Below, piece by piece: positions 22,053 through 44,320 of a stretch of DNA of 64,000 nucleotides. The DNA is taken from assembly GCA_963726315.1 (NCBI GenBank), contig CAVSBZ010000003.1, positions 38,978-102,977 of the forward strand, given 5' to 3'. Position 1 is the first letter of the stretch. Each line of letters opens with the position of its first letter. Source of the DNA: an uncultured Chloroflexia bacterium. Its GTDB lineage: Bacteria; Chloroflexota; Anaerolineae; Anaerolineales; UBA4823. The position numbers were made by a program, and so were the translations under genes. The notes below the pieces were generated by a model. It made no database searches, had not been told where the DNA came from, and worked only from the letters and a program-made list of their open reading frames with translations.

Positions 22053-22817
22053 TTAACTCGAGAAGATATCAACCACCTGTTTAATATGCAGAACGCCGTC
22101 AAATTCCAGCTTTTTATCACCTTTGAGTAAGCGGCCTTTCTCACCGTCAGGGTCGCCCAGACAGGTGACAATGATATCTCCGCTGTTGACATCTTCATTC
22201 TCCGTATAATAATTGGTGGTCACTACCACAAACGTTCCGGCGGCTTTTCCGGCTAACACACCGTTCTTGGAATCCTCAACCACAATGACCTCTTCCGGTT
22301 TTAGTCCGGTGCGGCTAAGCGCCAAATTGTATATTTCGGGATCGGGTTTTTTCTTACTGACCACATCCCCTGCCAGCACAATGTCAAACTTGATGTCTGA
22401 TAGGATTTTTTCGGTTATGGCTTTGGCAGCCTGTTCATTGGAAGTGGTGCAAACACCGATCATTAACCCCGCATCCATGGCTTCTTTCATAAAGCGGTGG
22501 ATGCCCGGGCGTAAGGGTAACTTACCCGTCTCGATCAGATCAACAAAGATTGCAGTTTTACGTTTGTGCATATCCTTGATGAGATCATCCACCTGTTCGG
22601 GCGGTACAGGTCTGCTGAAACCCTGGGTCTGCAGGTGATGCTTCATGCGTTCTTTACCCCCAGCAATTTGAAGCAGCTCATGATAATAATCAACAGACCA
22701 TTCGTCAGTGAAACCGAACTCCTTAAAGGTTAGATTAAAGGATACACGGTGACCATCCCGCTCGGTATCGATGATCACACCGTCCTGATCGAAGAACACA
22801 GCTTTAATTTTTCCCAT
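22053..22817 (-). CDS. HAD-superfamily phosphatase (subfamily IA, CbbY-like)
   Basis: N-terminal FFDQDGVIIDTE (DxDG) motif and a later VVEDSKNG motif. 254 aa. Confidence 0.8.
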   Translation of the reverse strand: MGKIKAVFFDQDGVIIDTERDGHRVSFNLTFKEFGFTDEWSVDYYHELLQIAGGKERMKHHLQTQGFSRPVPPEQVDDLIKDMHKRKTAIFVDLIETGKLPLRPGIHRFMKEAMDAGLMIGVCTTSNEQAAKAITEKILSDIKFDIVLAGDVVSKKKPDPEIYNLALSRTGLKPEEVIVVEDSKNGVLAGKAAGTFVVVTTNYYTENEDVNSGDIIVTCLGDPDGEKGRLLKGDKKLEFDGVLHIKQVVDIFSS

Positions 22818-22871
22818 TCTAGCCTCCTCATTGGGACCCCACCGGTCGACTTGACCTAGGTGGTTAGGTTC

Positions 22872-23975
22872 TCAGCTCTTGGTTAAAAATTCGCGCACCG
22901 TATCGACGGCCATACGGTTCTCTTCCTTGGTACCGATGGTGATGCGGAACCAGCCATCGGAGCCATATTTCTCGGTCTCTGGGCGGAAAATTAAGCCTTT
23001 CGATTCAGCATAAGCTACCACGTCTTTACCCTTTTTGCCTGTTGCACCACAATCAAACAGGATGTAGTTGGCCTTTGAAAGGAATACTACCAGGTTGGGA
23101 ACCTCGCTGAGCGCTTCTGTGATGAAATCCACCTCAGCATTGTTGAACTTCACTCGATAGTTTAGGGCTTCGGTATCCTCGAGTGACGCTAATGCCGCCC
23201 ACATCGGGATGGTACCCACATTCCAGGGCAATAACGCAGCGGATATTTGACTGATCACATCTTTATCACCCATGGCGTAGCCGAAGCGTAAACCAGCCAA
23301 ACCATAAGCTTTGGAAAGCGTACGTGTGATTAGCACGTTTTTATAGGTCTTGGTCAGCTCTACTTGCGACAGCTTTAATCCAGAGTACTCTACATATGCC
23401 TCATCAATCACAAAGGGGATACCTGTCTCAGCGATACGGACGAAATCCCCTGCATCCATGAAATTACCGGTTGGGTTGTTGGGATTAGCCACTGCAATGA
23501 TCTTGGTCTTTTCGGTAATGGCATTCAAGATTCCAGTCGCGTCGTAATGGAGGTACTTATCTTTATAAATCATCGGAACAGACACCATCTTGCCACCCAG
23601 GATGGTGCCACGCAGTTTATAAATGCCGAAGCAAGGTGTGTGCTGGATGACTTCTTCCCCAGGTGCCAGGAAGCAGCGGAAGATGTTATCGAACACCTCG
23701 CTGGAGCCATTTCCGAGCATAACATTCTCAGGACCATTTAAATGATTGATCTCAGCGATCTTACTGCGCACGATCAGTCCCTGATCTGGGTAACGATTAG
23801 CCATCTTGGCATATTTGATTAGCGCTTCCAACACCTTCTCGGAAGGCGGGTTAGGGTTCTCATTAGACATCATACGGTGGAGCTCAGGTTTTCGCCAGGC
23901 TAACTCAATGTGTCCCGAGACGTACATCGGAATCCCTTTTACCCAGGGTACAAAATAATCCTCTATCTTTTTCAT
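22872..23975 (-). CDS. Class I/II PLP aminotransferase, HisC/CobD-like
   Basis: 367 aa. Contains the TLSKAYGLAGLRFGY PLP-lysine motif typical of histidinol-phosphate aminotransferase-family enzymes. Confidence 0.85.
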   Translation of the reverse strand: MKKIEDYFVPWVKGIPMYVSGHIELAWRKPELHRMMSNENPNPPSEKVLEALIKYAKMANRYPDQGLIVRSKIAEINHLNGPENVMLGNGSSEVFDNIFRCFLAPGEEVIQHTPCFGIYKLRGTILGGKMVSVPMIYKDKYLHYDATGILNAITEKTKIIAVANPNNPTGNFMDAGDFVRIAETGIPFVIDEAYVEYSGLKLSQVELTKTYKNVLITRTLSKAYGLAGLRFGYAMGDKDVISQISAALLPWNVGTIPMWAALASLEDTEALNYRVKFNNAEVDFITEALSEVPNLVVFLSKANYILFDCGATGKKGKDVVAYAESKGLIFRPETEKYGSDGWFRITIGTKEENRMAVDTVREFLTKS

Positions 23976-24017
23976 ATCAATACTTAACTCCTCTGCAGTG
24001 AATGGTTATTCAAGTTA

Positions 24018-24048
24018 AAGAGTGATGGGGTTGTTACCCATCACTCTT
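24018..24048 (-). other. Perfect 12-bp hairpin between the aldolase and aminotransferase genes
   Basis: aagagtgatggg / cccatcactctt with a 7-nt loop. The U-tract on the minus strand is poor, so it may be an intercistronic processing or stability element rather than a full terminator. Confidence 0.4.
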
Positions 24049-24064: not shown

Positions 24065-24940
24065 TCACACCTTGTCAGCGCTGCCGAGCATATCGATCCA
24101 ATGTCCTACCGCCTCACGAATGGCTTTCCTCACGGCTTCGTCGACTTTTCCAGGATCATATTCTTCACGGTGGGTGTTGATATAATCGTATTGGGCGTCG
24201 ATCATGGTGCGTTTAAGCTCGGTGGAAACGTTGAATTTCGCTCCGCCCATCTCGATCAACTTCTTGATGTAATCTTCTGGCAGACCTGTGCCACCATGGA
24301 CTACCAGGGGTGTTTTAATGGTCTTGCCGTTCAGTAATTGGTTGATCTTGCCCAGTCGCTCAAAATCTACCTTTGGGTTTTTCGTTTTGTAAACCCCATG
24401 AGCAGTACCAATGGCAGGCGCAAAGATATCCAGACCGGTCCGCTCGACAAACTCAACTGCTTGAACCGGATTTGCCAGCTGAGTTTCATCCTCAGCCACT
24501 TTTATCTGATCCTCCACCCCGCTTACCGTACCCAGCTCGCCCTCTACAGAAATCTTACCGAGCTTATGACAGTAATCGACAATTTCCTTTGTTTGACGGA
24601 TATTCTCCTCATACGCTTGCTTGGAGGCGTCAACCATGATATTCGTATAGCCAGCGTCAGCACACTTCTTACAGTGTTCGATATCCGTACAATGATCCAG
24701 GTGTAAACAAATCGGGATTGGTGCTGCAGCAGCGAGGGTGCGGTAAATTGCTACCAACACGTCGACGCCTAGAAACTTGGATGGTTTCACCGAGGTCTGA
24801 ATGATTAAGGGTGATTTCTTGGCGACTGCCGCTTCGATCACACCTTCCATTTGGTTTACGTCAGTGATATTAAAAGCACCAATGGCATATTTACCCTTGG
24901 CAGCTTCCACCATGATTTCTTTTGCGTTGACAATCGACAT
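24065..24940 (-). CDS. Class II ketose-bisphosphate aldolase (fructose/tagatose-1,6-bisphosphate aldolase family)
   Basis: 291 aa with the motifs LHLDHC, EGELG and VVHGGTG. Confidence 0.85.
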   Translation of the reverse strand: MSIVNAKEIMVEAAKGKYAIGAFNITDVNQMEGVIEAAVAKKSPLIIQTSVKPSKFLGVDVLVAIYRTLAAAAPIPICLHLDHCTDIEHCKKCADAGYTNIMVDASKQAYEENIRQTKEIVDYCHKLGKISVEGELGTVSGVEDQIKVAEDETQLANPVQAVEFVERTGLDIFAPAIGTAHGVYKTKNPKVDFERLGKINQLLNGKTIKTPLVVHGGTGLPEDYIKKLIEMGGAKFNVSTELKRTMIDAQYDYINTHREEYDPGKVDEAVRKAIREAVGHWIDMLGSADKV

Positions 24941-25085: not shown

Positions 25086-27521
25086 TTATGCCTTAATTCT
25101 CTCTCCTTTTGGATCCCACAACGGTGATTGAACGACCACAGCACCGACCTGTTCTCCAAAGAATTCTACCTCAAATTCTGTCCCTGCTTTAGCATATTCG
25201 ATCGGCAGGTATGCATAGATGATACTCTTTTCTACAGAGTAGCCGTACCCGCCCGCAGCAACCCAACTGATGACATTGCCTTCCTTGGTCCGTATGGGTT
25301 CCTTGCCCAATGCAATGGTTCGGTTATCGGAGAGGGTGAGGCAACATAGCTTCCGCTTCAGACCGGAGCTCTTTTGCTCCAACAAGGCTTCCTTACCGAT
25401 AAATTCGGCTTTTTCGAGCCTGACTGCAAACCCCAGACCAGCTTCGAGGGGAGAATAGTCAGGGCTGATCTCGCTGCTCCAGTAACGATAGCCTTTTTCG
25501 AGTCGCAGCGTATCGATAGCTTTATATCCAGCGGCGACCATCCCTTCAGGTTGTCCGGCTTCCCATAATGTATCCCACAAGCGCAAGCCATATTCCATTG
25601 GGCAATAAAACTCCCAGCCTAATTCACCAACATAGGTTACTCTACTGGCAATTACAGGAACATCGCCCACCATAATCCGTCGAGCTGTCATGTATGGGAA
25701 ACCCTCATTGGATACATCAGCCAGGGTAACTTTTTCCAGGATCTTGCGAGCTTTAGGTCCCCACAAACCCAGACAGGCAAATGAAGAGCTAACATCTTCA
25801 ATGGCAACTGAGCCATCTTCAGGCATGTTCAAGGAGAGCCACGATAGGTCATGCTGCCCAAAGGCAGTACCGGTAATGATGAAGAACCGGTCTTCTGCCA
25901 AACGGGTGACCGTAAAGTCGCACTCGATTCCACCGTGCTTGTTCAAGCATTGAGTGTAAATAATTGTTCCAACCGACTGATCTATATTATTGGCGCAAAC
26001 ATAGTTGAGGAAGGCCAGCGCTCCAGGGCCGCGCACTTCGAACTTATTGAAGGATGTTTCATCAAAGAGACCAGCGTTGAGGCGGGTCATTAAGTGTTCG
26101 TAGCCAATGGCGCGTGACCAGTTATGGTGTGACCATCCTTTTGGTTCATGTCCATGGCGTGCCTTCTCTTCGTAAGGTTTGAACCAGTTGGGACGCTCCC
26201 AGCCAGTCTTCTCACCAAAATAGCAGCCCAACGCCTGCAGACGGTTGTAAGTAGGGGAGAGACGTAAGCCTCGGCGGGAAAGACGTTCTTCACCAGGATA
26301 ATGGATATCGTAGTATTGAGTATAAGTTTCGATCGTTCGGGCGACTGTATAATCCTGGCTGTTGTAATTGGATCCGAACCGACGCACATCCAATCGCCAA
26401 ACATCCCATTCAGGATGCCCATCGATGATCCATTCTGCCATGGTCTTCCCAATCCCACCTGCTCCAGCCAACCCATGGGCACAGAAAGCGCAAGCTACCC
26501 AAAATCCTTTCACCGAAGTAGGTCCTAATAAAAATTCACCGTCTGGGGTAAAGCCTTCAGGTCCGTTGAGAAGTTGAATCACCTCAGCAGTTTCAACTGC
26601 AGGCACCCGTTTAATGGAATTTTCCATCAGCGGAGTGAAGCGGTCCCAATCAGGAGGCAAAAGCTTGTATTTAAAATCGCGTGGGATGCCAGTCAATCCG
26701 AATGGCAGTGGGTTGCGCTCGTAACCGCCGGTGACCAGACCCCCAACTTCCTCCCGCCAGTAAACCAGCAAGTCGGGGTCGCGCAAGGTGGGGAAATCAT
26801 GTCCAACACCCTCGATGGGTCTGGTGATAATGTAAAGATGTGCCATGGGGACAACGGGCAAGCTGAGCCCAACCATCTTACCAACCTCGTTTCCCCACTG
26901 ACCGGCAGCGTTCACCACGATTTCGGTTTCGATCGTACCCAGGTTGGTGACCACATCATGGACGCGTCCGTTCTTCAGGTTAATCTTCTCCACATTCGTG
27001 TCAACGAAAATCTGCGCCCCACGTAGTTTGGCTCCTTTCGCGAGGGCATTCGTCAGACCGGTCGGATCAATCACACCATCATTAGGGGTGTAGGCTGCCC
27101 CAACAATTCCGTCCATGTTCATGAGTGGGAAAAGGTCGAAGGCTTCCTTGGGCGATATGAGGTCCATGGGTACGCCGAAAGATTTTGCCATTCCCACCAG
27201 TCGCTTGATGTCTTCCATCCGTTCTGGAGAAGAAGCCAGACGAAGACCGCCTACCTCACGCCAACCTGGGTCTTGTTCGGTCTCTTGTTTTAGCTTACGG
27301 TAAAGGTCCGTGCTGTAATGCATCATCCGGGTGAGATTTGCATCGGAGCGCATCTGTCCTATCAGACCAGCAGAGTGCCAGGTTGAACCGCTGGTCAGCT
27401 CATGACGTTCGAGGATGATGATGTCTTTCCAACCCATGAGAGTTAAATGATAAGCAATACTACATCCACCGACGCCACCGCCAATGATGACCACCTGAGC
27501 ATGAGCAGGAAGATCAGCCAT
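25086..27521 (-). CDS. FAD-dependent oxidoreductase fused to a GcvT/aminomethyltransferase folate-binding domain (dimethylglycine/sarcosine dehydrogenase-like), copy A
   Basis: 811 aa. Has the VVIIGGGVGGCS dinucleotide fold and STWHSAGL, which matches the covalent-FAD histidine motif of DMGDH/SARDH. The C-terminal half is GcvT-like (RLEKGYRYW). Confidence 0.85.
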   Translation of the reverse strand: MADLPAHAQVVIIGGGVGGCSIAYHLTLMGWKDIIILERHELTSGSTWHSAGLIGQMRSDANLTRMMHYSTDLYRKLKQETEQDPGWREVGGLRLASSPERMEDIKRLVGMAKSFGVPMDLISPKEAFDLFPLMNMDGIVGAAYTPNDGVIDPTGLTNALAKGAKLRGAQIFVDTNVEKINLKNGRVHDVVTNLGTIETEIVVNAAGQWGNEVGKMVGLSLPVVPMAHLYIITRPIEGVGHDFPTLRDPDLLVYWREEVGGLVTGGYERNPLPFGLTGIPRDFKYKLLPPDWDRFTPLMENSIKRVPAVETAEVIQLLNGPEGFTPDGEFLLGPTSVKGFWVACAFCAHGLAGAGGIGKTMAEWIIDGHPEWDVWRLDVRRFGSNYNSQDYTVARTIETYTQYYDIHYPGEERLSRRGLRLSPTYNRLQALGCYFGEKTGWERPNWFKPYEEKARHGHEPKGWSHHNWSRAIGYEHLMTRLNAGLFDETSFNKFEVRGPGALAFLNYVCANNIDQSVGTIIYTQCLNKHGGIECDFTVTRLAEDRFFIITGTAFGQHDLSWLSLNMPEDGSVAIEDVSSSFACLGLWGPKARKILEKVTLADVSNEGFPYMTARRIMVGDVPVIASRVTYVGELGWEFYCPMEYGLRLWDTLWEAGQPEGMVAAGYKAIDTLRLEKGYRYWSSEISPDYSPLEAGLGFAVRLEKAEFIGKEALLEQKSSGLKRKLCCLTLSDNRTIALGKEPIRTKEGNVISWVAAGGYGYSVEKSIIYAYLPIEYAKAGTEFEVEFFGEQVGAVVVQSPLWDPKGERIKA

Positions 27522-28431
27522 TTTTACTTACCTCCTTAAGATATTCATTCCAATATGGGTTATAGATATTATCCATGGCACGACCGAAGAACTTTTCGGA
27601 ATATTCATGGAAGTCGAAATCGAGCTTCGAAATCCCAATTTGTACAAGCCCCCAGGTGGCTTCACGCAGATCGGAGATGACTTTCATGATTTTTAGATGA
27701 GCCCAGTGTAAAGGGTTTATCTGTCCATCAAAATAGCAAATCAGCATCCAGCGATCTTGTTCGTCTGAGAAATTATGGTGGTCGGAGAAATTTGCCAGAT
27801 CGAAAAAAGCATCACCCATGCCAGCATATTCCCAATCGAGAATGTAGAGTTGACCATTGGTGAGGAAATTTGCATTGAGAAGATCATTGTGGCATGCACA
27901 AGGCTGATATGGATGAACAGATAGCGCTTTCTCGGCTCCTTGCAGGCGCTCGTTCAGCCAATCAAAGTCTTTTGGGAAGCCAACATTATTACGCTGGGCA
28001 ATTTCGGTATAATCCCGGACAACGTGAAAGGGGTCGAATATTCCAGGAATCGTTGGCATGGCGTGGATTTGATGGACTTTGTCCATTACCCGACGAATGT
28101 TCTCCGGTTCTGAAATCTCATCAGGAGAGATGGGTCGTCCATCAATAAAGCGTGTCACCAGGTAACCTTCAGGTCGGATGAAGTAATACACTTCGGGGGC
28201 GATACCTAGCTTTCCCGCGGCCAGATTTGCCGCATACTCATGCTCGCGGTTGATTCCCAAGAGCTCGGTATTCGCGCCAACGATCCGAAGGACATAAGAC
28301 TGTCCGCCTGTATCGATGCGGAAATTGTTGTTGGTAATTCCTCCGCCCAGAGGCGTAGCTTTCAAGTCACTGGCACCTACCCATTGAGGCACGCGGGCTA
28401 TCGCCTCCTCCAGAGTTAATTCCATATACAA
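27514..28431 (-). CDS. Choline/ethanolamine-kinase-like phosphotransferase (APH fold), copy A
   Basis: Contains GGITNNNF, CHNDLLNANFL (Brenner motif) and ILDWEYAGMGD. Its stop overlaps the downstream FAD enzyme start by 8 nt. Confidence 0.8.
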   Translation of the reverse strand: MYMELTLEEAIARVPQWVGASDLKATPLGGGITNNNFRIDTGGQSYVLRIVGANTELLGINREHEYAANLAAGKLGIAPEVYYFIRPEGYLVTRFIDGRPISPDEISEPENIRRVMDKVHQIHAMPTIPGIFDPFHVVRDYTEIAQRNNVGFPKDFDWLNERLQGAEKALSVHPYQPCACHNDLLNANFLTNGQLYILDWEYAGMGDAFFDLANFSDHHNFSDEQDRWMLICYFDGQINPLHWAHLKIMKVISDLREATWGLVQIGISKLDFDFHEYSEKFFGRAMDNIYNPYWNEYLKEVSKNG

Positions 28432-28505: not shown

Positions 28506-29315
28506 CTATTTCTGCCAGATTGAATCAGGTTTGGCCATCTCTGCCACGATATCATTCGAAGAGATAATACCCAGCGGAAAAGCTTGCGGGTGTTCATGGT
28601 CGATTACCACCAGGCGGTGATGGTGTTTTTGGATCATCAAGTCAGCGGCTTCACGCAGATGGACGTGAATGTCAATGGTCAGTGCAGGATGCATAATATC
28701 GCTGACAGTCAGATTTTCATCCACTCCATTAGTCACATAGGGTAGAAAATCCTTACCGCTAACCACACCTACAGGCGTGCCGTTCGCATTGACCACCAGC
28801 ACTGACCGCCATCCTGCCTGGGTCATGGTGCGGGCAGCGGAGGTGAGCGGGGTTTTATCTCTGCAAACCAGGATGGAATCTGACATCACATCTGCAACTG
28901 TCTCACGTAGGGGTTTTTCTTCGCGAGCCAGGCTGGCAACAAAATCAGAAATCGAAATAATACCCGCTGGTACGGAATTTTCGGTAACCAACAGGCGTTG
29001 GATGTCCTTTTCGATCAGCACGTGGGCAGCAATTTTGAGGGAGACTTCAGCTTCAACCGATTCGATCGGAGTGGACATAAGTTCACCAGCCGTCAGCTTG
29101 CGCATCGTCTTAAGGTCATGCGTATCAGCTGCCAGCCATTCGCCCGCCAGTAGATCATAATCGGAGATGATCCCCTGGGGATGACCTTGCTGGTCGACCA
29201 CCACCAATGCATGGATGTGGTTTTGGGTGAGTAAAACAGCCACCTGGCCTAAAGTAGCATGTAAATCACAGGTGTGGATCCCTGTATGCATCAAATCGCG
29301 GACAATATTTTTCAT
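28506..29315 (-). CDS. CBS-domain protein (four CBS repeats)
   Basis: 269 aa built from repeated CBS-type segments (e.g. HALVVVDQQGHPQGIISDYDL, RLLVTENSVPAGIISISDF). Confidence 0.8.
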   Translation of the reverse strand: MKNIVRDLMHTGIHTCDLHATLGQVAVLLTQNHIHALVVVDQQGHPQGIISDYDLLAGEWLAADTHDLKTMRKLTAGELMSTPIESVEAEVSLKIAAHVLIEKDIQRLLVTENSVPAGIISISDFVASLAREEKPLRETVADVMSDSILVCRDKTPLTSAARTMTQAGWRSVLVVNANGTPVGVVSGKDFLPYVTNGVDENLTVSDIMHPALTIDIHVHLREAADLMIQKHHHRLVVIDHEHPQAFPLGIISSNDIVAEMAKPDSIWQK

Positions 29316-30155: not shown

Positions 30156-30229
30156 AATGTTGACTGAATGTCATTAAATAGTAGACTACGGGAATATTTT
30201 CAAGCAATTATAATAAAAAAGGCAAAATC

Positions 30230-30258: not shown

Positions 30259-30315
30259 TAATCTTGATAATAAACAAATCCCTTACCTAACCGACCGATA
30301 ATTATATGTAAATTA

Positions 30316-37609: not shown

Positions 37610-38890
37610 TTGTGCGTGAAGAAGAGTCATCAGGTGCGTATGGACAAGCATGAAATAACAAGCATAAAAAATTTATTAAATTCTCGTGAACCGAACCACG
37701 ACTTGCCGAGACCGTTTTATCACAATGAAATCCTGTATCAAGCAGAGATGGAAGCCATCTGGAGGCAGGGATGGCTATTTGCCGGTCACTCATGCCAGAT
37801 CCCCAACCCGGGCGATTACTTTGTTTATGCCGTGGAAGATGATTCGGTGATCGTGGTGCGCGCTGATGACGGTCAGATCAACGCCCTTTACAACGTCTGC
37901 CGGCACCGGGGAATGGTGATCTGCCAGGTACCTGAAGGAAATATCAAGCGCTTTATTTGCCCTTATCACCAATGGACCTATGACCGCAGTGGGCACTTGC
38001 TGCTCCAGCATGGCATGCAGGAAGGTCTGGATAAGACCCAGCTCGGAATGCATCCTCTCCATGCCCGTGAGGTTGAGGGGCTGATCTTCATCAGCCTTGC
38101 CCAAGAACCGCTCGATTTCGATCCGGTTAAGTCGGCGATCGCCCTGGTTGCGAAACCTCAAAGACTGAGCCGAGGCAGGGTAGCTAAGATTATGGATTTT
38201 AATATCGAATCTAATTGGAAGCTGGTGTGGGAAAATAACCGTGAATGTATGCATTGTAACGTAAACCACCCGCAATATATCAAAGCTAACTTCGACCATT
38301 ACAACGCGGATGACACAACACCTCGAGTCGCGGAGAGGTTGGAAAGGGTCACAGCTCGTCTTGAAGCGAAACTGGCCGCCCAAGGCATGTCTCTGCGCGC
38401 AGAAACAGGCATGACCGAATTTCCTGACCCAGATCACGGGCTCTGGTATGCTGCCAACCGCACTCCTAATGAGCAGGGTTATGTTAGCGAAACCATGGAT
38501 GGCAAGCAGGTGGCACCCCTGATGGGTGATTACACCGACCCTGAAGTGGGCACGTTGCGTATCCGCAGCCTGCCAAACTTTTGGATTCATGCCAGCTGTG
38601 ACCATAGTGTGGCGGTGCGTCTCACCCCGAACGGACTCACCCACACCCACATCCGCATGATCTGGTTGGTGGCTGGGGAAGCGCAGGAAGGTCGGGATTA
38701 CGATTTGACTGAACTGCTTCCGTTCTGGCAATTAACCGCGGAGCAGGATTGGAAAATTTGCACCAACCAACAAAAGGGTGTCAGCTCACACGCATACACA
38801 CCGGGACCATTATCGACTTATAAGGAGTACAACCTTGACCGGTTCCTTCGTTGGTACCTGCAGGAAATGAAAGCGTACATCGAGGCATGA
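37610..38890 (+). CDS. Rieske [2Fe-2S] non-heme-iron oxygenase alpha subunit, GbcA/Stc2-like (N-demethylase-type)
   Basis: Rieske motif CRHRG...CPYHQW. Catalytic-domain motif NWKLVWENNRECMHCNVNHPQY. Start is uncertain among TTG 37610, GTG 37616 (better RBS spacing) and ATG 37640. Confidence 0.8.
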   Translation: MCVKKSHQVRMDKHEITSIKNLLNSREPNHDLPRPFYHNEILYQAEMEAIWRQGWLFAGHSCQIPNPGDYFVYAVEDDSVIVVRADDGQINALYNVCRHRGMVICQVPEGNIKRFICPYHQWTYDRSGHLLLQHGMQEGLDKTQLGMHPLHAREVEGLIFISLAQEPLDFDPVKSAIALVAKPQRLSRGRVAKIMDFNIESNWKLVWENNRECMHCNVNHPQYIKANFDHYNADDTTPRVAERLERVTARLEAKLAAQGMSLRAETGMTEFPDPDHGLWYAANRTPNEQGYVSETMDGKQVAPLMGDYTDPEVGTLRIRSLPNFWIHASCDHSVAVRLTPNGLTHTHIRMIWLVAGEAQEGRDYDLTELLPFWQLTAEQDWKICTNQQKGVSSHAYTPGPLSTYKEYNLDRFLRWYLQEMKAYIEA

Positions 38891-39807
38891 GCCAGCCTCA
38901 ACCGGTCTACGTTGGTTTTGGCATGCTCACCCCTGTGGCAATCATGGTGGTTGATCAGTTGCCACAACATAATTGCGGGGCATTGGTTAAGGAGGTAAGT
39001 GAATTCGTCTTTGACGATGCAGCCATCATCGCCTGCTTGCTACGCCAATGGGATATGCCGACTGCCATGATCGGTACTACTTTGGGGGACGACCCGCGCG
39101 GCCACCTGTTGGCCGAGCAGCTGGGAGAATGGGGGGTGGATGGAGAGGTACGTTTTTCAAAGGAAATAAAAACCCCCTGGGAAGTGGACGTCTCTGATGA
39201 AACCGGGGCACGCACTTATTTCTGGCAGAGGGAACCGAAAGTGTTAGCCACCCTCGATACAGCTGACTTATCGCTGGTTCGAGAGGCGCGGATGTTATAC
39301 GTGGATTGGTATGATGGTGACCACATCCTGCGCGCCATGGATGAGGCACTTAGGTACAACGTGCCGGTATTCCTGAATTTTGAACATGGACATGCAGACC
39401 CTGAACTATTGAAGCGTTATGCGAGTCGGGCACTGATCTGCCAGGCGACCACAGATGCCGCTCAACACGGGAAGGTATCCCCGTTGGAGGTGACGAGGAA
39501 ACTGTTGGATAATGGTGTGCAGACAGCTTTAATTACAATGGCGGAAGAAGGCAGCCTGGTTGCACAGGGCGAGCAAGTCATCCGTGTCAAAGCTCCCCAT
39601 GTTCATGTCGTGGATGGATGTGGAGCGGGTGCTACTTTTTCAGCTGGTTTCATCTATGGGCACCTGAGGGGTTGGATGCTTGAAGAATCGGTCCGCTTTG
39701 CGACCGCTGCAGCATCCTTAAAAGTGACCCACCCTGGACTGAAAATGTCCACCATTCCAGAGATCCAGGAACTAGCTGGTCGTCTCGCCGTTGAGCATTT
39801 GGGTTAG
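38886..39807 (+). CDS. PfkB (ribokinase-fold) family protein with an atypical active-site motif
   Basis: ATG overlaps the Rieske stop (ATGA). The C-terminal motif reads DGCGAGATF instead of the canonical DTxGAGDxF. Confidence 0.7.
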
Positions 39808-39835: not shown

Positions 39836-41287
39836 TTGATCAATTTTGCCACCCTTCTATCGCAGGAACAGGTTGAACGCACACACGCAGCCTCGCTTGA
39901 AATCCTTGAAAGCGTGGGTCTGCTGGTGCGAAATGAGCAAGCACGTGCGATCTTCAAACATGCGGGCTGCCGTGTAGATTCAGAGACACACAATGTAAAA
40001 TTGCCAACCGCGGTGGTCGATGAGTTCCGCCAGATGCTACCAACGACCTTCACCTTTTGTGGTCGCGATCCACAGTTTGACCGGACAATTCCGCAAGATG
40101 GTCCGGTGATTGTCACTGGCAGCTCGGCTCCGGATGTAATCGACTTGGTGACCGGTCGCCCAAGACGCGCCCGATCAGACGATATCGCCCGTATTGCCCA
40201 CCTGATCCAGGAGCTGCCGGCTTATGACATCTTTTCGATCTCAACCCTGGCAGATGACGCGCCGCCTGGGCAGTTCACCCTGGCTCGCCTGTATCCATCG
40301 CTGAAGTATTGCCTTAAGCCGGTGCGCAGTACCACCAAGGACATGGCGGACATACAGGCGATCCTGCATTTTCTATACACCATTGCAGGAAGTGAAGCCG
40401 CCTATCGCGATCACCCTTTTGTGACCCATCACTATTGTCCGGTCGTCTCTCCTCTAACGATGGATCAGCTCTCCACTGAAGCGGTCATTTTTTTCTGCCA
40501 GATGGGGCTGCCAGTCTATCCGAGTATCGTTCCTAATGCTGGTCTGACATCACCCATGTCCATGGCAGGTACCCTTGCGCAGGGCAATGCTGAATTCCTT
40601 GCCATAGCAGTGTTGATGCAGATGGTGCGTGAAGGCACACCCACGATCTACTCCACCTTGCCAACCGTCGCCGATATGCGCACGGGCGCGTATGCCTCGG
40701 GTGGCATTGAGTGCGGCATGCTGCACATGGCTTTTGCTCAAATGGCGCGCTTCTACAACGTGCCTTGTGGCGGATATATCGGATTATCCAATGCCAAGGT
40801 CAACGACGCCCAGTCTGGATACGAGACCGGAATGTCCACTGTGGCCAGCGTCTTGGGGGGTGCGGACATGCTTAATATGGGCGGTCTGCTGGATGCCCTC
40901 AAAGCTTTTGATTTTGCCAAAGCGGTAATTGACGATGAGATAGCCCAAATGCTCAAGCGTATGAAACGCGGTATTCTCTTTGGAGAAGAGGAACTTGCGC
41001 TGGAAGTGATTTCACAAGTAAAACCAGGGGGAAACTTCATGCTCAGCCCGCATACCAAAAAACGAATGAAGACCGAAGCTGTGCTCACCCGGATATCTGA
41101 ACGCGAAGCTCGCGAATCATGGGAAAAGCGCGGCTCCCTGGATACAAACGCCCGCGCTATGCAGCGAGTGCGTGAGATACTGGCGCGTGAAAGTATGTCG
41201 ATATTCGACGAAGAGGTTGAAGGTCGCATCCGCAAGCAGTTCAGAGATTTAATCCCTGGAAAATTGGAAATACCTCCAGGTTTATAG
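39836..41287 (+). CDS. MttB-superfamily methyltransferase, non-pyrrolysine type
   Basis: 483 aa. The N-terminus (LSQEQVERTHAASLEILESVGLLVRNEQARAIFKHAGCRVD) is typical of the family. There is no in-frame TAG. Confidence 0.8.
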   Translation: MINFATLLSQEQVERTHAASLEILESVGLLVRNEQARAIFKHAGCRVDSETHNVKLPTAVVDEFRQMLPTTFTFCGRDPQFDRTIPQDGPVIVTGSSAPDVIDLVTGRPRRARSDDIARIAHLIQELPAYDIFSISTLADDAPPGQFTLARLYPSLKYCLKPVRSTTKDMADIQAILHFLYTIAGSEAAYRDHPFVTHHYCPVVSPLTMDQLSTEAVIFFCQMGLPVYPSIVPNAGLTSPMSMAGTLAQGNAEFLAIAVLMQMVREGTPTIYSTLPTVADMRTGAYASGGIECGMLHMAFAQMARFYNVPCGGYIGLSNAKVNDAQSGYETGMSTVASVLGGADMLNMGGLLDALKAFDFAKAVIDDEIAQMLKRMKRGILFGEEELALEVISQVKPGGNFMLSPHTKKRMKTEAVLTRISEREARESWEKRGSLDTNARAMQRVREILARESMSIFDEEVEGRIRKQFRDLIPGKLEIPPGL

Positions 41288-41338: not shown

Positions 41339-42277
41339 ATGAAGTTATATTTCGCGACGGATGTGCACGGGTCGGAGATTTGTTGGAAGAAGTTCCTGGC
41401 GGCAAGCAAGTTTTACGAGGTGGATACCCTCGTCCTGGGGGGTGATATGACCGGTAAAGCCATCGTCCCAATCATTGCCCAGGGTGATGACGAATATAAG
41501 GTGACCCTGTTGGAGCAAGTGAGCATGCTGCACGGCAAAGAGGAAGTTGACAAGATGGTGCAGACCATCCAGAACCGCGGATATTATCCGTATTTGACAA
41601 ATCCAGACGAAGTTCAAGAGATTGTTTCCTCTCCAGGCAAGATGGACGAGCTATTTATGGACGAAGTGCTTACAACCGTTCAACGCTGGATGGAATACGC
41701 AGATGCGAAGTTGGAGGGGACCGGTATTCGCTGCATCGTCTGCCCGGGCAACGATGATGTCTTCGAGATTGACGCCGTGATCGCAGCCTCCAAGTGCGTG
41801 CGCAGCCTGGAAGGTCAGGTTATTGAGCTGGATGAATACCACGAGATGGCAAATTCAGGCTGGTCCAACCCGACCCCTTGGAACACTCATCGCGAGGAAC
41901 CAGAGGAGGCATTGCTCAAGCGCCTGGAATCAGTGATCAGCCAGGTCAAAAATCCCTCCCAGGCAGTCTTCAACTTTCACCCCCCGCCATACGGGAGTGG
42001 TCTGGATGAAGCCCCTGAGCTGACCAAAGACCTTCGCCAAGCGTATGCTGGCCGGTCCATGATACCGGTTGGTAGCAAAGCCGTCATGGCTATGATTGAT
42101 AAGTATCAGCCTTTGCTTGGGCTCCACGGTCATATCCATGAAGGTAAGGGTACGCGCAAGTATAAGAAGACGTTGTGCGTCAACCCGGGCAGTATGTACG
42201 AACAAGGGATGTTGTCCGGTGCGGTCATCGAACTAAAACCCCAAAAGGTGGGCAATTATCTGCTCACAACGGGGTAA
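41339..42277 (+). CDS. Calcineurin-like metallophosphoesterase, copy 2
   Basis: Motifs ATDVHGSE, GGDMTGK, CPGNDD and LHGHIHEG. It is collinear with copy 1. Confidence 0.75.
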   Translation: MKLYFATDVHGSEICWKKFLAASKFYEVDTLVLGGDMTGKAIVPIIAQGDDEYKVTLLEQVSMLHGKEEVDKMVQTIQNRGYYPYLTNPDEVQEIVSSPGKMDELFMDEVLTTVQRWMEYADAKLEGTGIRCIVCPGNDDVFEIDAVIAASKCVRSLEGQVIELDEYHEMANSGWSNPTPWNTHREEPEEALLKRLESVISQVKNPSQAVFNFHPPPYGSGLDEAPELTKDLRQAYAGRSMIPVGSKAVMAMIDKYQPLLGLHGHIHEGKGTRKYKKTLCVNPGSMYEQGMLSGAVIELKPQKVGNYLLTTG

Positions 42278-42433
42278 GGTTAGGTGATTAGCAGGGATTT
42301 GCGAAAGGAGGCGTGTGACTGAGATTGAAATTCCGGGTGAGAAGTAGCGGGTTTAGTCCGAAGATTATTTTAAACCAAGGCTTCCCAGGAGCTCTTCAGG
42401 AAGCTGCAAATTGAATACAATAAGGAGATTGCA

Positions 42434-44320
42434 ATGAGTGACGTTTCTTTATTCGTTCGCAAAGCAAGTGGCTTGGTGAGAGCCTGGTCAGTGTTCGATG
42501 CGTTCATCTACGCCACTTTCTCGATCAACTTGATCACCCTCGGGCTTTTTATCTTCTCATATTGTTATTACCTCCAGGGCAGTCTGATCAGCGGGGTTGT
42601 AATTGGAGCTATCTTCACCATCTTTGAAGTGATTGTATACGCCAGTCTGATTTCCGCCATGCCGCGTGCAGGGGGTGACTACGTCTGGCAAAGCCGCATA
42701 TTAGGTCGAATGATCGGTTTTGTGCTGGCGGTAACTGGCTGGTGGTTCATCCTATGGCTGTGGACTCCACTTTATGGTCAGATGCTGACTTATGAGGTTT
42801 ACACGCCTCTTCTGGCGATCGCAGGATTCAAAGATGCTGCTTTATGGTTTACGACAACATCGCAGGGACAGTTCGTTGGTATGCTGTCGGTGTGCCTGAT
42901 CGTATTCATTTATATTACCGTTGGAATGAAATGGTACGCCCGAGTGCAGAAATTCTGTTTTTGGGGTGGGTTAGTAGGCTTGGCGATTGTTTTCGGGCTG
43001 CTGCTATTTGGCAACCATGATACATTCGTGACTAATTACAATGCCATGGCTCCCACCTTTGGCGCTACCGGCGGGGATGTGTATTCAGCGACTATGCAGG
43101 CAGGTGAAGACGCTGGCACTGTGGCAGGTCCGCTCTTCCCTCTGGCGATTGGTGCCAGCCTTTTGCTCGTTCCAATGTTGACTTTCTTCAATCTGTGGCC
43201 AAATTGGGGTTCCACCCTATATGGCGAGGTGCGTGGCGCATCGGATTACAAGCGCAACTTCCTGGGCATGTTCATGGCAATTATCATAACCATGGTGGGT
43301 GCTGTGGTTTTGTTCTTGCTGATTGCTAAAACGATCGGTTGGGATTTTTATAACCATTCCAATGGTGCCTTTTGGAACTGGGGCTTTGGCTATACTACCA
43401 CACCCCCACCACTGCCCATATGGCCTTACCCGGCTCTATTCGCCACCTTCATGGTGAAGAGCCCGGCGTTGATGTTCATCGTCGTGCTGCTGATGAGCCT
43501 GTGGTGGTTTGGCTGGTCGGGGACGCTCTTCCTGAGCTCAACACGCGTGATCTTTGCAGCCGCGATCGACCGCATGCTGCCAGAGTGGGTATCCAAGATT
43601 GAACCACGCACGAAGACACCTATATTCGCCCTCTTGCTTATGGTTATTCCGGCGGCAATCATCTCCTACCTTTATGCATTCAAGATATTTAATTTCAACA
43701 CCCTGGCTCTTGATGCAACAGTGGTGATTGCCATTACTTTCCTTGGTTCTACAATTGCAGGCATCATTATGCCGTGGAAAGCAAAAGATGTGTATGATGG
43801 TTCTCCGATTGCCAAGTATAAAGTTCCTTCCTGGTTGGGGTGGATCGTCACCATCATTTATGCTGGCTTTTCTTTATACCTCATTTATATCTCGCTGAGA
43901 TATGGCTATGATATCGTGAGCGGGATCGGAACTCTTGACCCAAACACAGCAACCTGGATTGTGGTGATCCTTCTGTCGATCCTGACGGTCGTCAATGCGG
44001 CGGTCTTGATCTGGATCTTTTTCCAGGTTGTCAAGGGTTTATTAAGCAGCAAAGCTATGCCACTCGTTACATTGGCGGGTTTGATCTTCCTGGGTTTCCT
44101 GGACTGGTTGCTGGTGAAGTGGTTTTGGGATCCGAATGTCCTCCCCGAGTCATTACCAACCGTCGGAACCTATGGCATCGGCTGGTCTAACGTGAACTCG
44201 ATGATCTTTATGCTGTTGAACTATATCGTGGCAGCTGTGATCTATTTCGGTTTCAGCGCTTACCGCCGCCGACAGGGCATCCAGATCGAAAAAGTCTATA
44301 AGGAGATCCCGGTCGAGTAA
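42434..44320 (+). CDS. APC-superfamily permease, copy 2
   Basis: 628 aa. Contains PRAGGDYVWQSR. Shares the N-terminal RKASGLVR motif with copy 1. Confidence 0.8.
   Translation: MSDVSLFVRKASGLVRAWSVFDAFIYATFSINLITLGLFIFSYCYYLQGSLISGVVIGAIFTIFEVIVYASLISAMPRAGGDYVWQSRILGRMIGFVLAVTGWWFILWLWTPLYGQMLTYEVYTPLLAIAGFKDAALWFTTTSQGQFVGMLSVCLIVFIYITVGMKWYARVQKFCFWGGLVGLAIVFGLLLFGNHDTFVTNYNAMAPTFGATGGDVYSATMQAGEDAGTVAGPLFPLAIGASLLLVPMLTFFNLWPNWGSTLYGEVRGASDYKRNFLGMFMAIIITMVGAVVLFLLIAKTIGWDFYNHSNGAFWNWGFGYTTTPPPLPIWPYPALFATFMVKSPALMFIVVLLMSLWWFGWSGTLFLSSTRVIFAAAIDRMLPEWVSKIEPRTKTPIFALLLMVIPAAIISYLYAFKIFNFNTLALDATVVIAITFLGSTIAGIIMPWKAKDVYDGSPIAKYKVPSWLGWIVTIIYAGFSLYLIYISLRYGYDIVSGIGTLDPNTATWIVVILLSILTVVNAAVLIWIFFQVVKGLLSSKAMPLVTLAGLIFLGFLDWLLVKWFWDPNVLPESLPTVGTYGIGWSNVNSMIFMLLNYIVAAVIYFGFSAYRRRQGIQIEKVYKEIPVE

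Follow-up and report, generated by a model that had tools for sequence, protein, structure and literature searches.

A DeoR-linked gene cluster of Anaerolineales as a candidate catabolic system for N-methylated amino alcohols

Background

The window analyzed in this study, a 64,000-nucleotide stretch of DNA from an uncultured Anaerolineales bacterium, contains two strings of genes that diverge from a DeoR-family regulator gene. Which compound would call for two choline-kinase-like enzymes, several demethylase-type enzymes, an aldolase, an aminotransferase, and a phosphatase under one regulator? The evidence favors a catabolic system, so far undescribed, in which N-methylated amino alcohols would be phosphorylated, demethylated step by step, and passed to an aminotransferase/aldolase tail, with DeoR as the regulator.

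Part of this logic has a precedent for kinase-first demethylation. In Eubacterium limosum, the choline kinase MthK makes phosphocholine, and the MttB-family protein MthB demethylates phosphocholine only (2025; PMC12155760). A first-pass annotation of the window had named no described pathway that combines three demethylation routes with paired kinases and phosphoesterases and an aldolase and aminotransferase tail. Kinase-activated demethylation is now described; of the later steps, we found no description in the literature searched. The same literature gave no precedent for a phosphoethanolamine aminotransferase, a DMGDH-type enzyme specific for phospho-bases, or physiological synthesis of xylulose-1,5-bisphosphate (XuBP). 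If the proposal is true, amino-alcohol carbon would enter the pentose phosphate pathway by a path not yet described.

Results and Discussion

Gene content and shared promoter

All 17 genes of the first-pass annotation were recovered at their coordinates with the expected domains (ORF list and profile search), although both Metallophos matches were weak, below the Pfam cut-offs. No enzyme reached the equivalog cut-off of a characterized pathway. The features are as follows.

21411..22010, minus: NUDIX hydrolase, peripheral (PF00293 match)
21998..22033: terminator-like palindromic hairpin at the end of the minus-strand operon, past the HAD stop codon and before the NUDIX gene (16-pair stem, hairpin scan)
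22053..22817, minus: CbbY-type HAD phosphatase, predicted XuBP 1-phosphatase (PDB matches and cap residues)
22872..23975, minus: subfamily I-beta (HisC/ArAT-like) aminotransferase (AT), predicted phosphoethanolamine:2-oxoacid aminotransferase (PF00155, Aminotran_1_2)
24018..24048: intra-operon hairpin in the aldolase/aminotransferase interval (12-pair stem, hairpin scan)
24065..24940, minus: class II ketose-bisphosphate aldolase, predicted to form XuBP from DHAP and glycolaldehyde phosphate (PF01116, F_bP_aldolase, 299 bits)
25086..27521, minus: DMGDH-like FAD + GcvT demethylase 1 (DAO, FAO_M, GCV_T, GCV_T_C)
27514..28431, minus: LicA-type choline/ethanolamine-family kinase 1 (PF01633 and PF01636 matches)
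28506..29315, minus: stand-alone 4xCBS protein (PF00571, four copies)
29328..30119, minus: pol-beta-type nucleotidyltransferase-like (NTase-like) protein, 263 aa (PF14907 below threshold)
30200..30260: conserved core of the predicted bidirectional promoter/operator (promoter scan and conservation)
30316..31110, plus: DeoR/GlpR-family regulator (HTH_DeoR and DeoRC domains)
31154..32149, plus: metallophosphoesterase 1 (MPE1), predicted cytoplasmic (weak Metallophos)
32298..34157, plus: APC-superfamily permease 1, 619 aa (PF13520, AA_permease_2)
34244..35143, plus: LicA-type choline/ethanolamine-family kinase 2 (PF01633 match)
35166..37592, plus: DMGDH-like FAD + GcvT demethylase 2 (DAO, GCV_T)
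37610..38890, plus: GbcA-like Rieske oxygenase alpha subunit (Rieske, Ring_hydroxyl_A)
38887..39807, plus: PfkB-fold protein without the catalytic Asp (PF00294, 92 bits)
39836..41287, plus: non-pyrrolysine MttB-superfamily protein, candidate phospho-base or quaternary-amine methyltransferase (PF06253, MTTB, 312 bits)
41339..42277, plus: metallophosphoesterase 2 (MPE2), predicted cytoplasmic (weak Metallophos)
42434..44320, plus: APC-superfamily permease 2, 628 aa (PF13520, AA_permease_2)

The hairpin that closes the minus-strand operon had been placed at 21999-22032 in the first pass. Of the 81 related loci, 10 contain the NUDIX gene, and it immediately follows the HAD gene in many metagenome contigs.

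The DeoR gene was found in 24 of the 81 loci, invariably divergent from the minus-strand operon. The interval between them contains a core of about 60 bp (ATTATAAT...CAAAAACTTGCAAATTTCTTCAGATTCTTTTATAAT), which is kept in 21 of 22 species and whose motif occurs once in the window. In the promoter scan, the palindromic TTGCAA (30230-30235) was the -35 element for both divergent promoters; the -10 TATAAT box of the minus-strand promoter ended at 30207 and that of the plus-strand promoter at 30258. Both arms are predicted to be under one conserved bidirectional promoter, which makes the divergon a single regulatory unit, in line with the earlier view of a DeoR-centred divergon.

Conservation of the cluster

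Gene content, family membership, motif integrity, synteny, the shared promoter, and the CbbY type of the HAD protein are what the sequences show. The gene set was found again in dozens of independent assemblies of Anaerolineales (uncultured Chloroflexota, GTDB genomes) and in 80 metagenome contigs; the first-pass annotation had proposed such a search of gene neighborhoods. Of 81 kinase-anchored loci, which span Chloroflexota, Dormibacterota, Actinomycetota, and Acidobacteriota, 63 also contain a DMGDH-like gene. The two genes were within 300 bp in 44 loci, and in the window the start of demethylase 1 overlaps the stop of kinase 1 by 8 nt. The LicA-type kinase and the DMGDH-like FAD + GcvT demethylase are the conserved core, as the earlier choice of this pair as an anchor had anticipated.

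In Anaerolineales, this core is joined to an exit module of class II aldolase, HisC-like aminotransferase, and HAD phosphatase. Among AT-anchored contigs, the HAD gene was found in 63 of 64, the aldolase gene upstream of AT in 56 of 57, and the kinase and flavoenzyme genes upstream in 30 of 33. The aldolase, AT, and HAD genes are almost an inseparable trio, and the arrangement as a whole is far beyond chance. The minimal recurrent set contains exactly three demethylase-type genes (MttB and two DMGDH-like), a number that matches three methyl groups. Dormibacterota-type loci place the kinase/flavoenzyme pair beside polyamine-type genes (a Pot-like ABC importer, a class III AT, and an aminobutyraldehyde dehydrogenase), which suggests that the substrates of the family may vary by lineage.

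Proposed pathway

The reading that we prefer, and to which we give about an even chance, is a DeoR-controlled catabolism and assimilation of choline/ethanolamine-type amino alcohols in which each intermediate is a phosphate ester. The amine would be imported by the APC permeases, and the cytoplasmic metallophosphoesterases could possibly free the amine or its phospho-form from a phosphodiester. Both LicA-type kinases would phosphorylate the hydroxyl group and in this way supply the cationic amino alcohol with an acidic group, on which the enzyme families of the glycine betaine pathway depend. For the quaternary N-methyl group of the phospho-base, the MttB-like protein is a possible demethylase, as is, in some strains, the Rieske oxygenase. 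The two DMGDH-like flavoenzymes would take off the tertiary and secondary methyl groups, with transfer of the carbon to tetrahydrofolate, to leave phosphoethanolamine. The HisC-like aminotransferase would convert phosphoethanolamine to glycolaldehyde 2-phosphate, which the class II aldolase would join to DHAP as XuBP. The CbbY-type phosphatase would then strip the 1-phosphate, rendering the sequence irreversible, and xylulose-5-phosphate would pass to the pentose phosphate pathway.

All of the substrates, whether the kinase or the demethylase acts first, the direction in which the aldolase runs, and the roles of the MttB-like, Rieske, metallophosphoesterase, PfkB-like, CBS, and NTase-like proteins are predictions from sequence. 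The model itself gives no role to 6 of the 17 genes (the two metallophosphoesterases, PfkB-like, CBS, NTase-like, and one permease).

The proposed exit from phosphoethanolamine to xylulose-5-phosphate

The CbbY nature of the HAD protein was expected from the model first and then borne out by a test. Its best PDB matches were AtCbbYA (4UAV, 211 bits) and RsCbbY (135 bits), with the next family at 65 bits; the full-length identity to AtCbbYA was 47%. Of the 30 cap positions common to both proven XuBPases, 26 are kept, most of them invariant in 22 orthologues, and the DxD motif is invariant. By these comparisons, the protein is a CbbY-type phosphatase, a close homologue of CbbY. CbbY enzymes are about 1000- to 5000-fold selective for XuBP over RuBP, and XuBP has been obtained in vitro from DHAP and glycolaldehyde phosphate by aldol addition (PMC10212915). 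A CbbY-type HAD protein thus points to condensation of DHAP with glycolaldehyde phosphate as the aldolase reaction. RuBisCO and PRK in cluster-bearing genomes, if present, would permit a conventional repair role for CbbY.

The aldolase scored 263 with the ketose-bisphosphate aldolase subfamily model TIGR00167 (cut-off, 216) and below the cut-off with all FBA and TBA equivalog models. A ketose-bisphosphate aldolase and a bisphosphate 1-phosphatase form a classical condensing couple, e.g., FBA/FBPase. The first-pass annotation had taken the aldolase and aminotransferase tail as a route of cleavage or transamination; since the HAD protein is of the CbbY type, carbon assimilation is the better reading.

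AT is HisC-like but not taken as HisC: the hisC model scored 261 (cut-off, 276.6), and S92 and F116 occupy the imidazole-binding positions in 28 of 28 orthologues (residue roles from PMC4703992). Without the imidazole-binding residues, the enzyme would suit a substrate that resembles histidinol phosphate minus its side chain. K222, R331, and R344 are invariant; however, both arginines also occur in aromatic aminotransferases and Phe116 is an ArAT-type residue, so that the phospho-substrate is a prediction.

The PfkB fold named in the first-pass annotation was found. The resemblance to sugar kinases is confined to the C-terminal half, and in the motif DG[CS]GAGATF the position of the catalytic Asp is A261, invariant in 12 of 12 orthologues; the protein is probably not a kinase. 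Its ORF was called from 38851, and the likelier start is an ATG at 38887 that shares an ATGA with the Rieske stop codon.

These results bear on another pathway, already raised in the first pass, in which an N-methylated 2-amino-polyol or amino-sugar alcohol would be phosphorylated at C1, N-demethylated, transaminated to a ketose-1-phosphate, phosphorylated again, and cleaved by the aldolase to triose phosphates. This pathway would suit the sugar-phosphate-type (DeoR) regulator, the class II ketose-bisphosphate aldolase, and the PfkB-fold protein of the cluster, and HisC-type transamination of R-CH(NH2)-CH2-OP could yield a ketose-1-phosphate. However, the PfkB-like protein lacks its catalytic residue, the kinases are related to choline/ethanolamine kinases rather than sugar kinases, a CbbY-like phosphatase would be superfluous in cleavage, and a polyol dehydrogenase or isomerase was not found in the cluster. 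We regard this pathway as quite improbable.

Kinases and demethylation

In the family profile of the kinases, 3DXQ scored 205 bits and LicA (4R77) 123 bits, versus 28 bits for APH. Kinase 1 has intact Brenner and choline-kinase motifs; kinase 2, 27% identical to it, retains the catalytic D and N and the DxEY motif. Both are assigned to the choline/ethanolamine kinase clade with intact motifs, which agrees with the earlier naming. The DMGDH-like proteins scored 570-580 bits with mammalian DMGDH (demethylase 1 and rat DMGDH, 579 bits). Demethylase 1 contains GxGxxG and the motif STWH49SAG, whose His is kept in 53 of the 53 orthologues with a residue at that column; His49 is the putative flavinylation site (cf. 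human His91). Demethylase 2 is 44% identical to demethylase 1, with the motif SSH46AAG.

The first-pass annotation counted three stacked demethylation chemistries. This overstates the case. The Rieske protein has intact C97, H99, C117, and H120, and its iron site may be the pair H215/H220. Its gene is present in 4 of 81 related loci only, the closest ones, and no reductase partner was found in the cluster; the gene is accessory. The MttB homologue, in which the Pyl position is Leu, scored 221 bits with DhMtgB; Y97, R312, H348, and F356 of MtgB are replaced by S, G, N, and L, and S96, G312, and N347 of the homologue are invariant in nine orthologues. The acid-binding Arg312 is found in all characterized quaternary-amine MttB members, including MthB and its relatives, whereas it is Gly here. 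No corrinoid protein or MT2 gene was found near the homologue. With an MttB protein that lacks these features and a Rieske protein that lacks a reductase, removal of the quaternary methyl group, and hence the use of choline, is insecure.

Could the cluster be an ordinary route from glycine betaine via dimethylglycine and sarcosine to glycine (GbcA or MtgB, DMGDH, SARDH), beside unrelated sugar-phosphate and kinase genes? The family assignments are those of that pathway, and the DMGDH scores given above fit it. However, the GbcA model scored 362.5 with the Rieske protein (cut-off, 670), none of the four residues by which MtgB binds glycine betaine is kept, and the kinases are translationally coupled with the flavoenzymes. 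The whole set is also co-inherited through gene-order rearrangements with one conserved promoter, and glycine as the product would leave AT, the aldolase, and CbbY without explanation. This makes the ordinary route very unlikely.

A variant closer to the preferred pathway is that the demethylases act on free N-methylethanolamines or choline, and only the final ethanolamine is phosphorylated before the same tail. The kinase adjoins the demethylase, yet the order of action is unreadable from sequence; the MttB homologue without Arg312 would suit a non-acidic substrate. Two divergent kinases, each with its own demethylase, would be superfluous if ethanolamine alone were phosphorylated, the characterized substrates of DMGDH/SARDH and of MttB-family quaternary-amine enzymes are all acidic, and the sole studied choline case needs phosphorylation first (PMC12155760). 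We consider the variant unlikely, though the least so of the alternatives.

Metallophosphoesterases, permeases, and the NTase-like and CBS proteins

MPE1 has invariant metal-ligand motifs (D20xH22, GD48, GN150DD, H228, and GH282xH284xH286) and was modeled as a metallophosphoesterase fold (AF2 pLDDT 87), nearest to the uncharacterized aq_1956 and TT1561. MPE2, 39% identical to MPE1, likewise keeps every motif despite the sub-cut-off Pfam score of both. In some locus variants, MPE1 is located within the core operon. Permease 1 is paired with a metallophosphoesterase in about 15 loci, Limnocylindria included; permease 2 is 28% identical to it.

The cluster might instead scavenge phosphorus or head groups from phosphodiesters (glycerophosphocholine, glycerophosphoethanolamine), with phosphate release by the metallophosphoesterases as the central step and the amine as a by-product. 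Two such enzymes with intact motifs, each paired with a permease, and a GlpR-like regulator are consistent with this; in many loci, PHO4 and PhoU_div genes flank the cluster on one side or the other, although the PHO4 adjacency may be mere synteny. However, the metallophosphoesterase and APC genes are absent from many otherwise complete clusters, the kinases would reverse the phosphatase action, and conservation is highest in the demethylase, aldolase, AT, and HAD proteins (70-96% identity). Scavenging as the main function is hardly probable.

The NTase-like ORF was called as 275 aa (29328-30155) with no Pfam match; the likelier start is 30119, as in all homologues. All 26 family members gave sub-threshold PF14907 matches, with an invariant GS...DxD...D pattern (G41, S42, D65, D67, and D114); the AF2 model, at a pLDDT of 43, was of too low quality for use. 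The 4xCBS gene was found in 22 of the 81 loci, each time adjoining the operon start, and its product possibly senses a ligand.

Gene content and organization of the cluster

An ORF map and Pfam/NCBIfam profile scans bore out the gene list of the first-pass annotation; each gene was present where it had been placed, and the profile-HMM assignments gave the domains that had been named. Two strings of genes diverge, as follows.

Minus-strand operon, in order: NTase-like protein; 4xCBS protein; Choline_kinase/APH kinase (kinase 1); flavoenzyme 1 (DAO+FAO_M+GCV_T+GCV_T_C); class II aldolase; class I/II aminotransferase (AT, HisC-like); HAD phosphatase
29328-30119, minus strand: NTase-like protein, 263 aa, the length seen in all homologues
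21998-22033: 16-bp hairpin at the end of the minus-strand operon
Plus-strand string, in order: DeoR regulator; metallophosphoesterase (MPE) 1; APC permease 1; kinase 2; flavoenzyme 2; Rieske protein; PfkB-fold protein; MttB-family protein; MPE 2; permease 2

On the minus strand, the start of the flavoenzyme 1 gene overlaps the stop of the kinase 1 gene by 8 nt, and on the plus strand the most likely start codon of the PfkB-fold gene (38887) forms ATGA with the stop of the Rieske gene. The DeoR/GlpR regulator has both the HTH_DeoR domain and the DeoRC sensor domain. An internal hairpin of 12 bp with a T-rich tract after it (24018-24048) separates the aldolase gene from the aminotransferase gene; it may act in attenuation or in RNA processing or stability.

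Almost all the NCBIfam matches of the cluster proteins missed the equivalog cut-offs: the Rieske protein scored 362.5 bits with the GbcA model (cut-off 670), the AT 261 with the hisC model TIGR01141 (cut-off 276.6), and the two kinases 273 and 175 with the GntI model (cut-off 357), and the trimethylamine methyltransferase model gave 358 (cut-off 525). These proteins are therefore paralogues of the characterized enzymes, not those enzymes themselves. Guanitoxin-like biosynthesis was considered and rejected, as GntI, GntC, and GntE were merely the nearest NCBIfam models, all under the cut-off.

A core of about 60 bp in the intergenic region next to the DeoR gene was kept in 21 of 22 species, the exception being a more divergent related locus (L038) with three mismatches. 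The core consists of ATTATAAT, an A-rich stretch, CAAAAA, CTTGCAAATT, and then TCTTCAGATTCTTTTATAAT, and it occurs once in the window. Its palindromic TTGCAA (30230-30235) is the -35 element common to two back-to-back predicted promoters, both of which have a 17-nt spacer and a TATAAT -10 box; a consensus scan picked the same sites. On the DeoR side, the conserved segment from -35 to -10 may serve as an operator. As the two strings share this conserved bidirectional promoter core, the divergon appears to be one regulatory unit. An Rfam scan of the window found no riboswitch.

Recurrence in related genomes

Homologues of kinase 1 with 70-94% identity came from metagenome-assembled genomes of Anaerolineales/Chloroflexota, and the same divergon was seen on two long contigs. 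GTDB genomes, one for each species, were scanned with a kinase alignment as the seed; this returned 80 loci, and their six-frame ORFs were compared with the window proteins. A DMGDH-like gene shared the locus with the kinase gene in 63 of 81 loci, and in 27 of the 29 loci in which both flanks were at least 7 kb; the distance between the two genes was no more than 300 bp in 44 loci. The lineages with such loci include Anaerolineales, Limnocylindria, Ktedonobacteraceae, Dormibacterota, Gaiellaceae, and Acidobacteriota. The aldolase, AT, and HAD genes (hereafter, the trio) were found jointly in 22 of the 81 loci, with 63-96% identity. The other genes were found in the following numbers of loci (DeoR, 24; NTase-like, 23; CBS, 22; MPE, 19; APC, 15; PfkB-like, 11; MttB-like, 9; and Rieske, only 4). 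Between species, the gene order is reshuffled while the set is kept whole; for example, the kinase and flavoenzyme genes have swapped order, the trio is inverted in L038, and an MPE gene is placed inside the core operon.

Among metagenome contigs anchored on the AT gene and having sufficient flanks, the HAD gene was downstream in 63 of 64 and the aldolase gene upstream in 56 of 57, the kinase and flavoenzyme genes were present in 30 of 33, and the DeoR gene in 17 of 22. These contigs come from close relatives only (77-92% identity), so that the scan tested coupling within the family, and it revealed no independent contexts of the trio among these relatives. The cluster thus recurs in both the kinase- and the AT-anchored scans, and the gene arrangement is real and non-random.

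In ten loci of the Dormibacterota type (L041, L043, L045, L047, L048, L053, L063, L069, L074, and L081), the kinase/DMGDH-like pair is accompanied by genes for a Pot-like ABC importer, a class III aminotransferase resembling GSA aminomutase, and an enzyme of the aminobutyraldehyde dehydrogenase subfamily. This is an amine-catabolism context, in which the deaminated aldehyde is oxidized rather than aldol-condensed; the substrate may be different, and another N-methylated amine pathway is possibly built on the same core. In Limnocylindria, a gene for a divergent 480-aa class II aldolase adjoins the kinase gene, and its other neighbours, judged by eye, encode a MoxR ATPase, a VWA protein, and a small membrane protein. 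We downgraded this aldolase as independent support, since with MoxR/VWA-like neighbours plain synteny is possible.

Kinases and flavoenzymes

The profile of the kinase family matched the choline/ethanolamine kinases 3DXQ (205 bits) and pneumococcal LicA (123 bits), and aminoglycoside kinases with 28 bits. Both kinases scored above the PF01633 cut-off, and the Brenner and choline-kinase motifs are intact in both; judged by these profiles and motifs, they are members of the LicA-type choline/ethanolamine kinase family. Both flavoenzymes have the full DMGDH architecture (DAO, FAO_M, GCV_T, and GCV_T_C). Near the N terminus, each also has a motif of the flavinylation type whose His (H49 in flavoenzyme 1 and H46 in flavoenzyme 2) is putatively equivalent to His91 of the human enzyme. 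His91 is the flavinylation site in human (PMC5082570).

Aldolase, aminotransferase, and HAD phosphatase

The aldolase scored 263 bits with TIGR00167, the model of the ketose-bisphosphate aldolase subfamily (cut-off 215.6), and this subfamily model was the only one passed, all the FBA and TBA equivalog models being under the cut-off.

The AT belongs to subfamily I-beta and keeps the PLP lysine and both arginines. In HisC, the imidazole ring is held by Tyr plus Asn/Asp (PMC4703992); the AT has Ser92 and Phe116 at these positions, and both are invariant in 28 orthologues. These residues and the TIGR01141 score rule out a canonical HisC. The arginine pair was also considered as a mark of a phosphate substrate, and this reading was withdrawn because aromatic aminotransferases retain the same pair (PMC4703992). 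The AT residues are thus less decisive for the proposed substrate than the features of the HAD phosphatase are for its own.

Reasoning from the gene set gave a CbbY-type xylulose-1,5-bisphosphate (XuBP) phosphatase as the expected identity of the HAD protein, and the later comparison agreed. Its best solved relatives are Arabidopsis CbbYA (4UAV, 211 bits in a match that spans the whole protein) and Rhodobacter CbbY (4UAR, 135 bits), and the next-best family reached only 65 bits. The two reference enzymes are only 40% identical to each other, and the window HAD keeps 66 of the 89 positions common to both. In a three-way conservation count of the cap, which determines specificity, it keeps 26 of the 30 shared positions, most of which are invariant in 22 orthologues; D10 and D12 of the DxD motif are also invariant. 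The protein is accordingly predicted, from its sequence, to be a CbbY-type XuBP 1-phosphatase. CbbY removes the 1-phosphate of XuBP, which it prefers to RuBP by about 1000-5000-fold (PMC10212915). While the full-length homology to the enzymes of Rhodobacter sphaeroides and Arabidopsis is close and the catalytic and cap residues are conserved, known CbbY repairs a by-product of RuBisCO, and its gene is in cbb operons or its product is targeted to the chloroplast (PMC10212915). The window gene, in contrast, is fixed together with the aldolase and aminotransferase genes in a catabolic operon, and no RuBisCO or PRK domain was found in the annotated ORFs of the 64-kb window or among the families that repeatedly occur as neighbours in the related loci.

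Removal of the quaternary methyl group

The MttB homologue has the PF06253 TIM-barrel domain (312 bits) and is closest to DhMtgB (221 bits), with Leu aligned with the Pyl position of 7XCL. At the four positions that bind glycine betaine in MtgB it has Ser, Gly, Asn, and Leu, and among nine orthologues S96, G312, and N347 are invariant. The acidic group is bound by Arg312 (MtgB numbering), which MthB and all the characterized relatives retain (PMC13080624); the window protein has Gly in place of this arginine, which MtgB, MtcB, MtpB, MtyB, and MthB share. No gene for a corrinoid protein or MT2 was found in the annotated ORFs of the window or adjoining the MTTB gene in related loci. The Rieske protein has intact cluster ligands and was found only in the closest relatives, and no GbcB-type reductase partner is encoded in the cluster. 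Removal of the quaternary methyl group is the weakest step of the model, because Arg312 is missing, no corrinoid protein or MT2 gene is nearby, and the Rieske protein has no reductase and a narrow distribution.

Other proteins of the cluster

Both MPEs have all five metal-ligand motifs, which are invariant, and no signal peptide; their Pfam scores are under the cut-offs. The predicted structure of MPE 1 (pLDDT 87) is an alpha/beta sandwich whose Foldseek match was 2YVT (E 7e-13). This fold search matched only uncharacterized metallophosphoesterases, and an MPE profile search against PDB sequences found nothing.

The resemblance of the PfkB-fold protein to sugar kinases is limited to its C-terminal half. 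It has GAGAT for GAGD, the PfkB motif that contains the catalytic Asp (PROSITE PS00584), and Ala261 replaces this Asp in all 12 orthologues (L005, L006, L010, L011, L020, L024, and L030-L035). Its gene invariably neighbours the MttB-like gene, and its translation is coupled to that of the Rieske gene. The motif of the protein makes a conventional kinase unlikely; a role as a pseudokinase or as a partner that binds a ligand is possible. The assignment of the NTase-like protein is at the level of fold motifs only; its structure prediction had a pLDDT of 43, which is too low to use.

Proposed pathway

We propose that an amino alcohol would first be phosphorylated, and the phospho-bases would then be N-demethylated to phosphoethanolamine. 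This compound, "histidinol phosphate without the side chain", would be converted to glycolaldehyde phosphate by the HisC-type enzyme, the class II aldolase would condense glycolaldehyde phosphate with DHAP to XuBP, and the CbbY-type HAD would yield xylulose-5-phosphate (Xu5P). The same aldol addition of DHAP and glycolaldehyde phosphate is used in the laboratory synthesis of XuBP (PMC10212915).

The first-pass annotation regarded the divergon as a candidate undescribed catabolic system for methylated amino alcohols; this general reading was supported, and four of its points were corrected. In general terms, the cluster probably encodes a phospho-amino-alcohol catabolic system. The specific route through phospho-base demethylation, glycolaldehyde phosphate, and XuBP to Xu5P is the likeliest mechanism, about evenly balanced between right and wrong. 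We put forward more tentatively, as slightly short of an even chance, that Anaerolineales and, in varied form, other soil and sediment phyla have a complete, undescribed "phospho-base" pathway, in which choline-type head groups are phosphorylated and, as esters, fully N-demethylated by paralogues of the glycine betaine enzymes and phosphoethanolamine is assimilated without B12 or free acetaldehyde; held jointly with this, and with the same reserve, phosphoethanolamine transamination, XuBP made by an aldolase, and a mainstream role of CbbY in place of repair would be without physiological precedent. The literature search gave a 2025 precedent for the first step and no description of the remaining steps.

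Two other readings were rejected. For catabolism of phosphonate (AEP), the PhnX and phosphonatase models gave only about 35 bits and the kinases would be superfluous; the biosynthetic direction was set aside, as neither the demethylases nor the phosphatase work in reverse.

Few nitrogen-containing products of lipid breakdown are more abundant in soils, sediments, and sludge than choline and ethanolamine head groups. The known bacterial routes release trimethylamine, convert choline oxidatively to glycine betaine, or depend on ethanolamine ammonia-lyase, a B12 enzyme. If the proposal is true, the cluster would be a fourth route in the widespread, mostly uncultured Anaerolineales, including the activated-sludge genus Ca. 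Villigracilis, by which the C2 skeleton would be kept as pentose phosphate and the methyl groups delivered to folate. It would also give new functions to the very large, poorly resolved DMGDH-like, MttB-like, and HisC-like families, provide the first non-photosynthetic pathway role of CbbY, and extend the 2025 discovery of obligatory choline phosphorylation ahead of MttB-type demethylation.

Comparison with known systems

The closest precedent is the choline:THF methyltransferase system of Eubacterium limosum, in which the LicA-like kinase MthK forms phosphocholine and the MttB-family enzyme MthB demethylates phosphocholine only, together with the corrinoid protein MthC and MthA (PMC12155760). 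The present cluster resembles it in the proposed activation by a LicA-like kinase followed by MttB-superfamily demethylation of a phospho-ester, and in co-localized, divergent kinase and methyltransferase genes (PMC12155760). Jiang et al. (JBC 2025; PMC12155760) argued that phosphorylation provides the acidic group needed by the MttB family; we propose the same phosphate handle for the DMGDH-like enzymes, because their known substrates are acidic. The E. limosum system, however, removes a single methyl group, after which dimethylaminoethanol is recycled or excreted, and requires MthC and the MT2 MthA, both of which are absent from the present cluster (PMC12155760). MthB keeps Arg312, whereas the window homologue has Gly. 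Beyond this, the present cluster encodes two DMGDH-like flavoenzymes and a proposed exit through the AT, aldolase, and CbbY, and its host belongs to Chloroflexota; the survey in that study named only Firmicutes and Deltaproteobacteria (PMC12155760).

Glycine betaine catabolism (GbcAB or MtgB, DMG dehydrogenase/oxidase, and sarcosine dehydrogenase/oxidase) uses the same three enzyme families, proceeds in the same order from quaternary to tertiary to secondary amine, and passes the methyl carbon to tetrahydrofolate. The cluster differs from it in the sub-cut-off equivalog scores and the replaced substrate residues of MtgB; moreover, the proposed substrates are phosphate esters instead of carboxylates, the kinases are integral, and the end product would not be glycine.

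Another known route, found in Erwinia and Pseudomonas and as the mycobacterial aminopropanol system, consists of an amino alcohol kinase, an amino-alcohol O-phosphate phospho-lyase, and an aldehyde dehydrogenase; the lyase, of the class III fold, eliminates phosphate to give acetaldehyde or propionaldehyde. There, too, an APH/ChoK-fold kinase acts first and a PLP enzyme deaminates the phospho-ester, whereas the class I HisC-like transaminase proposed here would leave the phosphate in place, and aldol condensation would be the means of assimilating the C2 unit. As in the couples of FBP aldolase with FBPase and SBP aldolase with SBPase, a 1-phosphatase acting after a ketose-bisphosphate aldolase would pull the condensation forward, but the acceptor would be glycolaldehyde phosphate (C2), the product a pentulose, and the phosphatase a HAD enzyme without the FBPase fold.

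Surroundings of the cluster

A PHO4 phosphate-transporter gene (20415-21374) flanks the cluster. PHO4 and, in related loci, PhoU_div genes flank it in L001, L002, L006, L024, L027, L030-L033, and many metagenome contigs, at either the HAD end or the MttB end; this adjacency may point to a link with phosphate or be no more than synteny. The position of PhoU_div in related loci is occupied in the window by a 401-aa ORF without a family assignment (18809-20014), which lies where the GC content of the window is highest (0.53).

Just downstream of the cluster (44607-47487) is a degraded-looking ABC importer, with the SBP_bac_6 solute-binding-protein gene split over three reading frames (44669-45184, 45141-45653, and 45343-45795) and one permease gene in two frames (46746-47081 and 47005-47487); the gene for the PotA-like ATPase (47509-48570) is uninterrupted. 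The broken genes are either pseudogenes or the result of local assembly indels.

Upstream is an unrelated sugar/dihydroxyacetone utilization cluster (151-11720), a possible local source of DHAP. It encodes an ABC importer, a dihydroxyacetone kinase of the Dak1/Dak2 type as two pairs lying apart from each other (3276-4929 and 10069-11720), a protein of the class II aldolase/adducin fold, an FGGY kinase, and two TIM-barrel proteins that resemble xylose isomerase. The window also encodes a 930-aa MalT-like TPR/LuxR regulator (14419-17211) and a 1105-aa ORF (54220-57537) with a SAM-dependent methyltransferase domain (residues about 40-250) and a complete leucyl-tRNA synthetase, which is either a true fusion or two adjacent in-frame genes. 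A single tRNA gene (53113-53185) was the sole Rfam match in the window.
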